Shown: in pieces, positions 29,335 to 64,000 of the stretch | Numbering within the stretch: position 1 is the stretch's first letter | Layout: the number at the start of each line of letters is the position of its first letter | Virus record (IMG/VR): IMGVR_UViG_3300020473_000017 | Origin: a virus | Reading direction: 5' to 3' (one strand) | DNA length: 64,000 bases | Notes under the pieces: generated by a model | The model's input: the letters and a program-made list of their open reading frames with translations, nothing else | Told to the model about the DNA's origin: nothing | The model's database searches: none | Position numbers and translations under genes: made by a program

Positions 29335-29536
29335 TGGGGATCCTTTGGGTGATTTGGTCGTAATAGTCAGGGTAGACTAAAACGTTGACTTGTTTAATGC
29401 CATGAAGTGTACCCTTATCAGGCCACTCATGTGTACAGACTACGATATAATCACTACAAACGAAATTGATGTAAGCAGTATTACTTCCATCATAGGAGAC
29501 TGGATCTCCGATCTTGAACTGATGTTTCTTAGGCAT
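29276..29536 (-). CDS. Hypothetical protein
   Basis: ORF track. Confidence 0.65.
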   Translation of the reverse strand: MPKKHQFKIGDPVSYDGSNTAYINFVCSDYIVVCTHEWPDKGTLHGIKQVNVLVYPDYYDQITQRIPNGKVSQESPIHSAESGHTG

Positions 29537-29745
29537 TAGTTACCAAAACCATTACCCTTATTTAACTCAGTTCTCTGTGCGTATAAATTACGCAACTCAC
29601 GTTTCAATCTTGCCTCCTCTTCTCCCGTGTAGATATAGGATTGTTTTAAACACTCCTTTATCATATTAATTTGTTTGGAGAGAGTGCCGATAGATTGATA
29701 CATCTGAGGTTCAGTAGGGTCTAATGGTTCTGGTCTAAGCTTCAT
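29536..29745 (-). CDS. Hypothetical protein
   Basis: ORF track. Confidence 0.65.
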   Translation of the reverse strand: MKLRPEPLDPTEPQMYQSIGTLSKQINMIKECLKQSYIYTGEEEARLKRELRNLYAQRTELNKGNGFGN

Positions 29746-29749
29746 GTCA

Positions 29750-29857
29750 TCATAAGGTGCTGGTTTCAGCGTTCTCTACGATGTCCTCCAATATTGCTAG
29801 GATATCTCTGCCATTGTTGGCTTGCTCTAGAAGGAAAACTGCGAAAGTTTCAGACAT
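29750..29857 (-). CDS. Small hypothetical protein, 35 aa
   Basis: Hand-translated MSETFAVFLLEQANNGRDILAILEDI. Confidence 0.5.
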   Translation of the reverse strand: MSETFAVFLLEQANNGRDILAILEDIVENAETSTL

Positions 29858-29881
29858 GATAATTAAAAATGAAGTTTACAA

Positions 29882-29956
29882 TGGTGCCACAAGAGAGATT
29901 TGAACTCCCGACCTTGGCTTTACAAAAGCCCTGCACTACCGCTGTGCTATTGTGGC
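29882..29956 (-). tRNA. trnT: tRNA-Thr (anticodon UGU), CCA encoded
   Basis: Acceptor stem GCCACAA/TTGTGGC, D arm GCAC/GTGC, loop TTTGTAA, T loop TTCAAAT, ACCA end. Confidence 0.95.
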
Positions 29957-30363
29957 ACGAAGTGGGGTTGTACATTACTCTAACGTCATGTCTCTGCTTC
30001 TATAGGGTCTTACATTCAATGCTATCCCATCCCCATATGCAAGGATAAATCCTGCTTTTTCGGGTTTAAGTATGGACTTTCACCATACCCATTGAATGCC
30101 CTTGTCAGAGTAGTTAGAAACCACTAGGTGAAACGAGTTTCCTATCGCCCCTAGCACTGAAACCCGCTATACTTCAAAGGGTGCTAGAGCAGTTGAGGGA
30201 AAGGGGCATCGACATAGGTTTCACCTATATGCCCAAATTTACCTACTGGGAATCGGTTACACCTGAACCCCTACTGACGACTTAAAGGACGTAATTTCCC
30301 TGCTGAACAGAGACAACCATAGATCCTTGCGTTGTTCGGGCAGTAGAACCTTTATCCCTCAAC
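29957..30363 (-). ncRNA. Candidate large structured ncRNA, possibly two RNAs, upstream of tRNA-Thr
   Basis: No ORF in the track; several 6-10 bp stems; the predicted TSS equals the first base of a 9-bp closing stem. Confidence 0.7.
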
Positions 30364-30369
30364 ATATTA

Positions 30370-30427
30370 ATTATAACAGATCAAGGTTACCATGCAATAC
30401 CCTGCGTGACACTTTCTGAACTGTCTC
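30370..30427 (-). promoter_or_regulatory. Palindromic-box promoter driving the ncRNA-tRNA transcript
   Basis: GTGACACT-N6-ACTGTCTC at 30406-30427, 30 nt, TATAAT. Confidence 0.8.
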
Positions 30428-31000
30428 TACACCCAGTAATTCACGCCACAATGGTTTACACTGCTTAATGTATGCAAAGTACTCCTCGCATGTAAATGGT
30501 GCATCAACGACCTCTAGTATGTCCTTGACACCATAGACTGTAATACCCTTGTTCTTATACTTGTTGTATAGACTGTTAGGTATTACATCTAGCATAGGAC
30601 AGAAGTATCCTGATACCTGAGCATTGAGTGCAACCACTAATTCTTGGATGCCTAGATTTGCCGCCTTGGTCTTCTGACTATCAAATGCAAGATTGTTCTT
30701 ACATTCAAGATACCATTTCTCCACTTGATCTACTTGGAAGAAATGATCTATCTGACGTTCAGCACCATTGACAGTGCACATATTACTCTCTTCTATGAGG
30801 TTGTCAGCACGTTCAGAATCTGATATGACCTTATTCCAGAATGCTTCAATTTCATTGCCATACTGGATCCATACAGATGGATGTGAGACTATATCAGCAC
30901 AGTCATGTGCCAAACAGATAAAGCTTTCAGTAAGCTTTGCCTTAATGTTCGTATAGATTGGAAGGTAGTTTGCTTCCAAGTATTCAGTGGATAATGACAT
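30371..31000 (-). CDS. Putative PD-(D/E)xK restriction-endonuclease-like nuclease
   Basis: GNEIE...RQIDHFF...YLECKNN...DSQK; start taken at MSLSTEY. Confidence 0.55.
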   Translation of the reverse strand: MSLSTEYLEANYLPIYTNIKAKLTESFICLAHDCADIVSHPSVWIQYGNEIEAFWNKVISDSERADNLIEESNMCTVNGAERQIDHFFQVDQVEKWYLECKNNLAFDSQKTKAANLGIQELVVALNAQVSGYFCPMLDVIPNSLYNKYKNKGITVYGVKDILEVVDAPFTCEEYFAYIKQCKPLWRELLGVETVQKVSRRVLHGNLDLL

Positions 31001-56053: not shown

Positions 56054-58401
56054 GATAATCTAACTCCTTTGCCTTGATCAGATATAATCAAAGAACTCAA
56101 TTTGGCTATTGGTACTTCCTTCTCAACAGTTTTTGTAACCAATTGTGGTATATACTCTGGTACTGGTACAACCACTGACTTTACCATCGCTTTCTTTGTT
56201 TGTAATACTGGAGTTTGATTAATATTTTCAACATTTTTCTTAGGACTTGGTTTTATATTTGGTGACATAGAAGATTTACTCGGCGATGGTCCAACAAGAC
56301 CACCACCATTAAATCCTTGAACTAAACCACCACCATTCATTTTAGCACTAGCAGATATATCAGCACTTAAAGCATCTAGTTCAAGTTGCTCCTTGAGTTC
56401 TAGTGCAAATCTTGCTTCAGGGTTTGATGCAAGATACGCTTGCTTATCTTCTTCTGTCAGTACACCCATTGATCCTCGGAAAATAGTTTCAGCACCTTTT
56501 GTTTTTTGCTCCCATGTGGATTTCGTCATGGTATTAAAATCCATATCAGTATGTGATGTTTCTTTTATTCCACCACCATAATATTCTGCACCCATTGCTT
56601 TTGTAAGTTCCACACCCTCCGCATAAGTTATTTTATCTAAAGGGGGTAATCCTAGAATTTCTGTTCGTTCTTTATTAACCCAATAAAGCGTCTCTGCTTC
56701 GATTCTTGCTTTTTCTTCTTTGTCAGTTAGAACACCCCTAGTATGTCCTAACTTTTCGCTCATAGTTTGTACCTTACCACCTTCATTGAATCCACCGCTA
56801 ACAGTTGGTCTATTTGTTCCACCTCCAGCAGCATTCATTGAAGCTAATGTACTAGCACCAAATTTCTTAACTGCACCCTTACTCATGACAAATTCACCAG
56901 CAGTTAATCGTGCGGGAACTTTATCTATACCAGAAGGACCAGATACAAAACCACCAGAATTAAGTTTCTGTTCTATATTAGTGGTTTCAGTATTACTTGC
57001 CTTTACATCAACCTGTTGAATTTCTGGAACTTTTGGTGTTTCAGCCTGAATATCTGACGTACCAACTATACTTTGAAGTTTCTTTGCCTCTTTTAATACT
57101 GAAGCAACAGCAGAAGAACCTGATAATGGACTAAGGAATGATATGGTAGCACCTACCATAACAGATGCACCTTCTCTATAAACTGCAGCGAGTGCATCAC
57201 CAATCTTACTCATTGGTAGAATCACTTCTGCTTCTTGTGCCTCACCAACTAATGCCTTAGATCCACCTAGCATACCTCTTGTTGGTGAATTAATAACCGA
57301 TCCACCTGATCTACCACCTACAAGACTACCAAATTTGTTCTTGTTTGTCGGATTATTAGGTCCACCCTTTTCAAATCCCTTATTTTCAGGATCAAGTTGT
57401 TCATAAGTGTAATCAACTATCTTTTGCCCTGCTTTATCACAAGCCCAAGCACCTGCTATACCACCACCTAACCACAACAATCCACCTAATACTTGAGAGT
57501 ATCCTGTTGGAGCTGCCAACAATGGTCCACTAACTGATAAAGTTGCTGAAGAACCTAACGCGAATCCTTTCCAACCACAAGCAGTAGTTACTGCAGTTTC
57601 TGTTAGAGCTCTATCTACTCTTTTATTTTCATTCGTCCTCTTGTTCTTATAATCCAGGTATGAAAGTGCACCCAACAGTAATTTACCACCATTATTTCTT
57701 ACAGGTTTTGGTAGTTTTTGGTATAAATTCTGAATATTTATCTTTCTGGGATCGATATTCTTTAATAACTTTGGTACTTCTACCTTTGGTATTATCCTCT
57801 TAGCTTTATCTACTACCATACCTGGCCATCTGGCATGTTTAGTAGCCCATAAAGGACGATTAGGTATATTAGCAGCAAGCTTATCAAATTGACGGAAAAT
57901 TATATTAGAACCCTTAGAACTCTTCCTAGCAATTTCAAGTGCTTGCTTTACATTTTGATTATTTGCTCTTGCTCTTCTGTATACATCTATCTGTGATTTA
58001 GTAAGACCAAACTTATTCATCAACTTCTTATCAGTCAGCCTTCTAAGCCTATTCTTCATGAATTGAGCTCTTGTTTGAGGCTTCGTTGGTGGTCTACGGA
58101 GAAATGGTACATAATTTCCTGGTCTAGGTCTGGCTCTTCTCTTATCTCTTGAATAATCTGTAATTGATGTACTTCCACGTTCGCCATCAAGTCCAACACC
58201 AAAACCACCACCATTACGATTACGTAGATATTCAATATACTCATACTCAGTGTCTAGGAATTCACCCATAGACTTACGAAATTTCTTAGTAACATCATAT
58301 ACATGCTCAAGATTAATATTTTCGTCAGCATCATCTGAAGATCCACCACGAAGTAGACCCCCTAAAAACTTTAAAATTTTATTTTCCTTCTTTGGAGCCA
58401 T
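56050..58401 (-). CDS. gp29 / tape-measure-like protein
   Basis: Gly-rich hydrophobic segment, GPSGIDKVPARLTAGEFVM motif; follows gp26-gp51. Confidence 0.6.
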   Translation of the reverse strand: MAPKKENKILKFLGGLLRGGSSDDADENINLEHVYDVTKKFRKSMGEFLDTEYEYIEYLRNRNGGGFGVGLDGERGSTSITDYSRDKRRARPRPGNYVPFLRRPPTKPQTRAQFMKNRLRRLTDKKLMNKFGLTKSQIDVYRRARANNQNVKQALEIARKSSKGSNIIFRQFDKLAANIPNRPLWATKHARWPGMVVDKAKRIIPKVEVPKLLKNIDPRKINIQNLYQKLPKPVRNNGGKLLLGALSYLDYKNKRTNENKRVDRALTETAVTTACGWKGFALGSSATLSVSGPLLAAPTGYSQVLGGLLWLGGGIAGAWACDKAGQKIVDYTYEQLDPENKGFEKGGPNNPTNKNKFGSLVGGRSGGSVINSPTRGMLGGSKALVGEAQEAEVILPMSKIGDALAAVYREGASVMVGATISFLSPLSGSSAVASVLKEAKKLQSIVGTSDIQAETPKVPEIQQVDVKASNTETTNIEQKLNSGGFVSGPSGIDKVPARLTAGEFVMSKGAVKKFGASTLASMNAAGGGTNRPTVSGGFNEGGKVQTMSEKLGHTRGVLTDKEEKARIEAETLYWVNKERTEILGLPPLDKITYAEGVELTKAMGAEYYGGGIKETSHTDMDFNTMTKSTWEQKTKGAETIFRGSMGVLTEEDKQAYLASNPEARFALELKEQLELDALSADISASAKMNGGGLVQGFNGGGLVGPSPSKSSMSPNIKPSPKKNVENINQTPVLQTKKAMVKSVVVPVPEYIPQLVTKTVEKEVPIAKLSSLIISDQGKGVRLS

Positions 58402-63766: not shown

Positions 63767-63802
63767 ACGTATTCTCCGTATTAAGTGTATTTGAGTATGG
63801 GT

Positions 63803-63975
63803 GGGAGGTTGGGTTAATGTATACCAACAAGTACAGGGCATTGCTACATTAGTAGATTTTTACTGTACTATCTGAGACCCGACTGGTAAGTCGATTCTTC
63901 CTTGGGGGAAGCAGCACCACCTGTGTCTCATCACCTTAACTAGCCTTATGCCAGCAAGTTTATTCAGTCACTCCC
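63803..63975 (-). ncRNA. manA-type RNA motif in the gp32 leader
   Basis: GGGAG...CUCCC closure; GUGACUGAAUAAACUU, GAGAC...GUCUC, CGAC/GUCG and GUUGG...CCAAC stems; family recognised from memory. Confidence 0.68.
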
Positions 63976-64000
63976 GTATCAGGTAGCGAACCCGATATAC

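Follow-up and report, generated by a model that had tools for sequence, protein, structure and literature searches.

We analyzed the stretch at 29957–30363 on the minus strand of a 64,000-nt window of DNA from a T4-like cyanophage, where the window is the whole of the DNA analyzed and all positions refer to it. The stretch is a 407-nt gap between an open reading frame (ORF) ending at 30371 and a tRNA-Thr (UGU) gene at 29956–29882. It consists of three autonomous RNA modules in a row, a three-way junction (module A), a linker pseudoknot and a stacked hairpin (module B), and not of the single two-domain molecule put forward in a preliminary description made from the sequence. That description was right that the gap is structured and non-coding: an ORF scan revealed no minus-strand ORF of at least 30 aa between 29976 and 30370, and covariation is found in A, the linker and B. 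It was also right that no known family is present, as an Rfam 15 scan of the stretch with E up to 10 finds tRNA alone, the other low-score matches being on the opposite strand or outside the stretch. The features of the locus are:

30192–30363, minus strand: module A, three-way-junction RNA (model R1, 126 bits, E = 2e-33)
30134–30191, minus strand: linker, H-type pseudoknot in which both helices covary
29961–30125, minus strand: module B, stacked three-helix hairpin (alignment A2, 33 sequences: 99% paired, 9/12 pairs compensatory)
29882–29956, minus strand: tRNA-Thr (UGU), called by ARAGORN (Rfam tRNA, 65.7 bits), 4 nt past module B
30370–30375, minus strand: perfect −10 hexamer TATAAT, start predicted at about G30363, 7 nt downstream
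30406–30414, minus strand: upstream box AAGUGUCAC, part of a composite cassette of box, terminator-like hairpin and −10 that recurs in these phages
29750–29857, minus strand: small acidic ORF of 35 aa (MSETFAVFLLEQ...), homologue of P-SSM2 gene 071, located past the tRNA in the window

The pseudoknot and module B are separated by 10 nt and module B and the tRNA by 4 nt; therefore the entire 407-nt gap is accounted for. The perfect −10 hexamer agrees with the earlier placement of the predicted transcription start at the first G of the stem that closes module A. The −35 hexamer (TTGCAT) is weak, and the promoter at 30370–30375 was therefore not listed by a consensus promoter scan. The box AAGUGUCAC is a putative promoter element; sites of the form AA[ACG][CGT]TG[GT]CAC occur in 8 copies in the window (23236, 25545, 26940, 27544, 28268 and 38428 on the plus strand; 37015 and 30415 on the minus strand). 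At related loci, a G+C hairpin with a T run comes after the box, and a TATAAT-like −10 comes next, giving a PeSL-like composite with a terminator inside the promoter spacer. Because no intrinsic terminator is predicted from 30700 down to 28900, the leader appears to share one transcription unit with the tRNA and a series of small ORFs, in line with the proposal that the stretch would be transcribed from the predicted promoter jointly with tRNA-Thr.

Fold and covariation of module A

The helices and the principal loop of module A are:

30363–30355 with 30200–30192, minus strand: P1, stem GUUGAGGGA/UCCCUCAAC, in which the first transcribed bases pair with the end of the module
30352–30350 with 30203–30201, minus strand: P1b, a short continuation of P1
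30346–30341 with 30248–30243, minus strand: P2, CUACUG with the distal CAGUAG
30340–30338 with 30270–30268, minus strand: P3, CCC with GGG
30234–30204, minus strand: P4a and P4b, with apical loop UGAAA
30249–30267, minus strand: one-sided 3′ internal loop of 19 nt between P3 and P2 (UUCAGGUGUAACCGAUUCC), whose last 16 nt are nearly invariant in the family

We scored 33 base pairs of this fold in two alignments of module A, A1 (38 distinct sequences) and A4 (98 distinct sequences). In A1, 94.3% of the cells are paired and 21/33 pairs show compensatory change; in A4, 96.1% of the cells are paired and 24/33 pairs have changes on both sides. Of 500 shuffles of A4, none reached the percentage of paired cells or the covariation score of the real alignment, and sliding the structure by 1–3 columns leaves 34–53% of cells paired. 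P2 is 99–100% paired and all six of its pairs covary in the 98-sequence set, with variants CUACUG/CAGUAG, CCUAUG/CAUAGG, CCAUAG/CUAUGG, CUCUAG/CUAGAG and CCUACG/CGUAGG, among others. The closing stem GUUGAGGGA/UCCCUCAAC recognized in the preliminary description covaries in relatives, with frequent G–U pairs, and the stems GGGCAU/AUGCCC and AUAGG/CCUAU are likewise present, P4a and P4b both covarying. Its inner stem CUACUG/CAGUAG stands as a pairing, with the distal word (30248–30243) as the partner and not the proximal one; an energy fold that joins CUACUG to the proximal CAGUAG is overruled by the covariation of P2 with the distal copy. A further proposed stem, ACAAC/GUUGU, is not conserved.

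The arm on P3 carries a hairpin, termed 'mid', at 30278–30330 (minus strand; helices AAGGAU/GUCCUU and UCUCUG/CAGGGA), with compensatory variants CUG/CAG to CAA/UUG and GGAU/GUCC to GGGU/GCCC. The 'mid' hairpin is joined to P3 by GAA (30337–30335) opposite AGUA (30275–30272), and the proximal CAGUAG supplies the AGUA half of these strands flanking the P3 cargo. GAA and AGUA flank 35/60 distinct P3 inserts; they carry a sarcin-ricin or bulged-G signature at the sequence level, and the base of P3 may thus form a sarcin-ricin-type motif.

Three unpaired parts of module A are practically invariant in the family: the junction strand GUAAAUUU, the P4 loop and the 16-nt segment of the internal loop. 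Among the loci found by a search anchored on P4, only the first three bases of the loop vary (UUC, UAC, UGC, UUU), and AGGUGUAAGCGAUUCC is essentially constant. The window carries a C at a single loop/core position where its relatives have G. The UUCAGGUGUAACCGAUUCC loop is a candidate binding core of module A. A mutual-information scan of A4 detected no further tertiary pairs beyond the known helices and a G–A alternative at the base of P3, and no covariation links the junction strand GGUU to the variable first bases of the loop.

Several other identities were considered and dropped. A Yfr1-like ACUCCUCACAC lies in the 3′ strand of P1, a helix that covaries, so that its sequence is not kept. 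A T-loop was considered by eye and set aside, as were permuted tmRNA, intron and retron RNAs, for which neither matching genes nor Rfam hits were seen.

The linker pseudoknot, module B and complementarity with module A

Downstream of module A, the paired elements are:

30188–30181 with 30157–30150, minus strand: linker helix S1, UCUAGCAC with GUGCUAGG; 6/8 pairs compensatory
30166–30159 with 30142–30134, minus strand: linker helix S2, CGGGUUUC with GGAAACUCG; core helix 100% paired, 3 compensatory pairs
30125–30134, minus strand: 10-nt GUUUCACCUA, perfect complement of the top of P4b, UAGGUGAAAC (30227–30218)
30125–30121 with 29965–29961, minus strand: outer helix of module B, AGUGG with CCACU; covariation GAGG/CCUC, ACGG/CCGU and UUACAGGU/ACCUGUAA
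30119–30113 with 29984–29978, minus strand: P1 of module B, UUCUAAC with GUUAGAG
30110–30106 with 29996–29992, minus strand: P2 of module B, CUCUG with CAGAG
30013–30098, minus strand: cargo in the loop of module B, closed by CAUUCAAUG/CAUUGAAUG, containing hairpin GGGUAUGGUGAAAGUCCAUAC and local hairpin GCAGGAUUUAUCCUUGC (30055–30039)

The linker hairpin CUAGCAC/GUGCUAG of the preliminary description corresponds to the covarying helix S1; what had been missed is that the loop of S1 pairs with the downstream GGAAAC... to form S2, making the linker an H-type pseudoknot. In the linker alignment A3 (18 sequences), 94.3% of cells are paired and 9/18 pairs are compensatory, matched by 0/500 shuffles.

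The closing stem first assigned to module B, UACUCUGAC/GUUAGAGUA, is paired in 77.8% of cells, which is not above shuffles, and is replaced by the register of UUCUAAC/GUUAGAG and CUCUG/CAGAG, which is paired in 99%. The internal loops of module B are asymmetric and conserved; the one between these two helices has UA opposite ACAUGAC. The inner stem CAUUCAAUG/CAUUGAAUG was correctly identified: it closes the nested cargo and has a compensatory change in L011 (UUCAUUG/CAAUGAA). Two readings of B by eye were dropped: a k-turn, and an anticodon-loop mimic in its loop, where U33 is not kept.

Other phages carry a longer RNA, likewise started at a promoter, with module B as its core (L001:2340-2490 in P-SSM2, L048:6540-6650 and the 3′ end of L106). 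This longer form is closed by GGGAAAACAAA...UUUGUUUUCCC with an extra covarying helix (GAGG/CCUC, ACGG/CCGU) and looks like a second uncatalogued RNA family.

The preliminary description saw the stretch as one RNA of about 400 nt with two domains, joined by loop-loop contacts, acting as a switch or assembling into a multimer like GOLLD or ROOL. Its main signal was a set of four segments of A with complements in or just after B in the same 5′ to 3′ order. Three of these complements are exact Watson-Crick matches; the fourth, UCUAUGG with 29999–30005, needs a G–U pair and is not listed in a Watson-Crick-only search. When Watson-Crick words of at least 6 nt were chained and compared with 2000 dinucleotide shuffles, the same-order chain scored 22 versus 17 ± 6 (P = 0.19) and the opposite order 21, so that collinearity is no signal here; 8 complementary words of at least 6 nt were observed between A and B versus 5.5 expected. 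On the B side, three of the four segments take part in local helices, one of them with full covariation support: CAGAGACA is the 3′ strand of the covarying CUCUG/CAGAG of B and resembles the 3′ strand of the look-alike 'mid' helix UCUCUG/CAGAGA, AUCCUUGC closes a local hairpin GCAGGAU...AUCCUUGC, and AACCCC overlaps the CCACU strand of the outer helix AGUGG/CCACU.

Complementary words between the domains do exist, and the junction strand AAAUUU is, by eye, self-complementary. The 10-nt GUUUCACCUA between the pseudoknot and B does perfectly complement 30227–30218, as first noted, with a chance expectation of about 0.04 (hand arithmetic). The 10-mer is peculiar to the window phage and absent past the pseudoknot in all other loci. 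The order A then B, as in the window, was found at no other locus, and because of this, conservation of the A–B contacts cannot be posed as a question. In other phages the modules occur alone, reordered or nested. GOLLD and ROOL give no Rfam match on the stretch even at E up to 10. A single two-domain molecule is therefore very improbable.

Distribution, genomic context and nesting of the modules

Relatives of module A were identified in more than 140 marine viral contigs and in the cultured phages P-SSM2 (positions 56698–56819 of its genome) and P-SSM5. The exact 21-nt core GGTTCAGGTGTAANCGATTCC is present in more than 120 IMG/VR contigs among the matches listed and in none of 185,579 cellular genomes, and the P4-anchored search added 24 further loci. 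Across 137 kb of homologous loci (18 loci), Rfam 15 yields no match at the gathering score. Module A is thus a large RNA family of ocean cyanobacterial viruses that is unlisted in Rfam 15. The window, P-SSM2, P-SSM5 and four IMG/VR records, of which one is a complete 202-kb genome, each have a single copy. The gp6 of the window is 75% identical to gp6 of the Prochlorococcus phages P-HM2, P-HM1 and MED4-213. Module A is missing from P-HM2 and MED4-213, which by this protein are the closest cultured relatives. It is an accessory, virus-only element that occurs patchily in at least two cyanomyovirus lineages. Among the contigs seen, L020 alone (IMGVR_UViG_3300006332_000008) carries A twice, with a spacing of about 900 nt and a lower score for the second copy (69.5 bits).

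The context of module A is variable on both sides. The box and −10 stand directly against P1 in 51/107 distinct upstream contexts, often with the terminator-like hairpin between box and −10; in the remaining contexts A is preceded by another RNA module or a GGGGGGACGCAUAAAGUG-type element. At about 20 loci (including L016, L005, L013 and L068), a second recurring context was seen 30–40 nt upstream of A, consisting of GGGGGGACGCAUAAAGUGUCCUUAAGG followed by a UGUGAGGGA-type P1. This GGGGGGACGCAUAAAGUGUCCUUAAGG context directly follows a conserved gene end (...IGCEIEGG*) and could be another promoter type or a further RNA hairpin.

Downstream, the first ORFs fall into 24 unrelated clusters of mostly tiny ORFs. 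Homologues of gene 071 (35–42 aa) form the largest first-ORF cluster (25/97) and lie 100–400 nt downstream of A in 30/35 loci where the ORF was found. A BLAST match to domain A, 92% identical, lies in an uncultured marine virus, where another gene follows it. The tRNA neighbor is confined to the window phage: ARAGORN detected no tRNA within 2.5 kb at any of 126 related loci (0/126), and the association with tRNA genes that had been suggested is no trait of the family.

The modules are found in changing combinations and inside one another. The P3 insert of module A is 12–229 nt long and can be a bare hairpin, 'mid', the B-cargo module, a complete B or other sequence. In its minimal form, for example in L016 (1335–1452), A has 118 nt. 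The B-cargo module occupies the P3 loop of A in L005, L006 and L078 and sits in B in L011, complete B is nested in P3 of A in L025, L028 and L093, and conversely A is nested in the loop of B in L077, L107, L117 and L124. The 'mid' hairpin also occurs free-standing or inside the loop of B (six loci). By BLAST, the counterpart in P-SSM2 and P-SSM5 of the inner hairpin that A has in the window lies about 700 nt upstream of the remaining parts of A, and an ORF intervenes.

Such shuffling resembles that of recombination cassettes, and the array lies beside PeSL-like cassettes; one could thus suppose a DNA-level element, a recombination cassette or an origin, with no role as RNA. Two observations point to RNA and not a DNA palindrome, because all modules are strand-matched to A in every locus and G–U pairs, which would become C–A mismatches on the other strand, are common. 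The compensatory changes in 24/33 pairs of A, the covarying pseudoknot and the presence of the element in RNA libraries also speak against a purely DNA-level element, a scarcely credible explanation.

In those libraries, metatranscriptome contigs from four marine studies cover module A at 85–100% identity. One contig ends at 30364, and another reaches the variant 5′ end of P1, GUUGAGAGAUAUGU, and stops there, a weak hint of the start. Contig depth is far higher over the core of A than over its flanks; because contigs sum many phage variants, they cannot rank regions and we did not count this depth toward abundance. Flanks without coverage carry no weight.

Possible roles of module A and relation to known phage RNAs

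On balance, we lean toward reading the 407 nt as an early 5′ leader of three conserved modules in a Prochlorococcus-type T4-like phage, with module A as a stable partner-binding RNA. The structural part of this explanation is very probable; that module A is a stable partner-binding RNA is, taken by itself, a tentative proposal with the odds somewhat against it. Host RNA polymerase would start at about G30363. RNase P cleaves the 5′ ends of tRNAs, and a cut at the 5′ end of tRNA-Thr would release the 407-nt leader of A, pseudoknot and B. Module A, shielded by its paired 5′ end, would then persist as a stable RNA, and its invariant loop and junction would bind one conserved putative partner, be it a protein or RNA of host or phage origin or, with lower likelihood, a small ligand. 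The arms of A would merely carry other, equally autonomous modules. Four features lead us to propose a single conserved partner: the 5′ end is paired, the loop and junction are invariant, A is single-copy and it is indifferent to the genes downstream.

Several points weigh against this reading. The folding energy of the sequence on its own does not stand out (z = −1.17). Metatranscriptome contigs are no guide to transcript starts, ends or levels, and DNA can be present in RNA libraries. The partner of module A is putative, and its expression as early is deduced from the shape of the promoter. The A family may already be an unnamed candidate among the 8,495 candidate covarying intergenic RNAs of uncultured phages that were reported from IMG/VR (Fremin et al. 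2023, PMC10690425). Finally, A lies 16–35 nt before a start codon in many loci, which fits a purely cis-acting leader equally well.

In such a leader, A, with or without the pseudoknot and B, would protect an early mRNA from RNase E/J or aid ribosome loading at an AU-rich start lacking a Shine-Dalgarno sequence, and no separate RNA would exist. A paired 5′ end is known to protect bacterial mRNAs, and here P1 pairs the very 5′ end of the transcript; the sequence leading to the start codons 16–35 nt downstream is, moreover, AU-rich. A simple stabilizer, however, needs no 16-nt invariant loop, junction or P4 loop and should recur on many early transcripts, whereas A is present once per genome. 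In the window, A precedes RNA modules and a tRNA, not an ORF. We therefore give a purely cis-acting role a small but real chance.

Module A also has the look of an aptamer, with covarying stems, invariant junction and loop bases and one arm of variable length, and it occupies a 5′ untranslated region (5′ UTR). In an orphan riboswitch, A would serve as the aptamer for a general host metabolite or ion, and whichever early gene lies behind it would be tuned accordingly. Cyanophages carry orphan riboswitch-like motifs, manA and wcaG (PMC2864571), and manA is found in this same window. A pathway-specific riboswitch is disfavored because the downstream ORFs form 24 unrelated clusters, with no consistent gene class, and because neither a terminator nor a platform masking the start codon was seen. 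Past P1, the aligned 3′ flanks contain no conserved terminator or masking of the start site, and no terminator is predicted in the window. When nested in B (L077, L124), as in the window, A precedes RNA and not a gene. Overall, a riboswitch is a distinctly unlikely explanation.

HK022-put-like leaders occur in other phages, and module A might similarly be a cis antiterminator, the nascent A binding its polymerase and carrying it through the terminator-promoter cassettes of the variable early region. The position of A at the very start of an early unit, once per genome, would suit such a role. Terminator-containing box/−10 cassettes lie past the first small ORF in several loci (L029, L087, L092), and composite PeSL cassettes are known in T4-type phages (PMC2839356, PMC4122927). 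Each cassette, however, has its own promoter, making read-through unneeded, and no terminator is predicted downstream in the window. No resemblance to put RNA was seen, though no test aimed at it was made. We regard antitermination as quite improbable.

The preferred reading, a three-module leader with A as a partner-binding RNA, has partial counterparts among known phage elements. The orphan multi-stem RNAs manA (RF01745) and wcaG (RF01761) occur in 5′ UTRs of T4-like cyanophages and in marine metagenomes (Weinberg et al. 2010, PMC2864571), and module A resembles them as a structured 5′-UTR RNA of T4-like cyanophages. A full-length manA RNA lies at the end of the window (63798–63997, minus strand, 165.6 bits) and has no sequence relation to module A; conversely, manA has no match on 29500–30800 even at E up to 10 (gathering threshold 55.2 bits). 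Whereas manA precedes metabolic and photosynthesis genes, module A precedes the 24 unrelated ORF clusters or other RNAs, and the nested module swapping seen for the A family is not described for manA or wcaG.

The PeSLs are promoter-terminator cassettes of the variable early regions of T4-type phages, where they occur with small orphan genes and shuffled modules (Arbiol et al. 2010, PMC2839356; Comeau et al. 2014, PMC4122927). Upstream of A, the combination of box, hairpin and −10 is similar, as is the recurrence of the box in 8 copies in the window. A PeSL, however, is a simple terminator hairpin within a promoter, with many copies per genome, whereas A is a transcribed three-way junction of 120–340 nt, single-copy and downstream of the start.

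GOLLD (RF01998) and ROOL (RF03087) are phage-borne structured non-coding RNAs, often near tRNA genes. Neither has a match at the gathering score in the window or in the homologous loci. A member of either family would be expected to form one large conserved fold of over 500 nt and to recur by tRNA genes, in contrast to the three small modules of the stretch, whose tRNA neighbor is unique to this phage. The tRNA cluster of phage T4 also yields stable RNAs C and D (species 1 and 2), structured non-tRNA RNAs that are co-transcribed with the tRNAs and freed by tRNA processing; we compared them by description only, and module A is normally not by a tRNA.

Our literature search found no description of the module A family, and the text of PMC10690425 names no cyanophage three-way-junction family or nested modules. 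More broadly, and speculatively, ocean cyanophages may draw on at least eight autonomous modules as a 'construction kit' (A, the nested hairpin, B, the B cargo, the pseudoknot, C, D, E and F). These would recombine and nest at a single early locus, and A, the most frequent of them, would be a new class of stable viral RNA whose invariant pocket binds a host factor or ligand for takeover.

Prochlorococcus and its T4-like phages shape the flow of carbon in the ocean, and module A offers a testable candidate for early host takeover. Early orphan regions have been read only as tiny unknown genes; in the one studied here, a large part is RNA and not protein. For RNA biology, module A is a new and well-defined orphan fold with cultured carriers (P-SSM2 and P-SSM5). 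For annotation, it is a warning that the long 'empty' gaps of cyanophage genomes are functional.

Further recurring elements were seen in the arrays. Homologues of P-SSM2 gene 070 (MATRSRIGL...HHWDGYP...) directly follow module A in L012, L032 and L126; in P-SSM2 and P-SSM5, this protein gene (149 aa, L001:2637-3086 in P-SSM2) lies between 'mid' plus module 'C' and the remaining RNA array. In L006 (1740–1850), a stretch with a T-arm-like GUGGUUCAAUUCCAC separates the RNA array from the small ORF; it may be left over from a tRNA or be a tRNA-like element, and ARAGORN does not call a tRNA at this position. Module 'C' consists of CGAGGAGAUGGAUGUGCCUC, a variable covarying hairpin and GAAAGAACUAACAUCC (L001:2553-2620, L005:1650-1720, L008; about 38 loci) and is located directly upstream of the start codons of several unrelated small ORFs, often after 'mid'. 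Module 'D' (GUGGUAUGACUUAGUACCU ... CAGGUGAAGCACCUCUUGAGCAUACCAC; L001:3345-3430, L006:1590-1700; 15 loci) has other modules nested inside it and carries UCAGGUGAAGC, which resembles UCAGGUGUAAGC of the invariant loop of module A.

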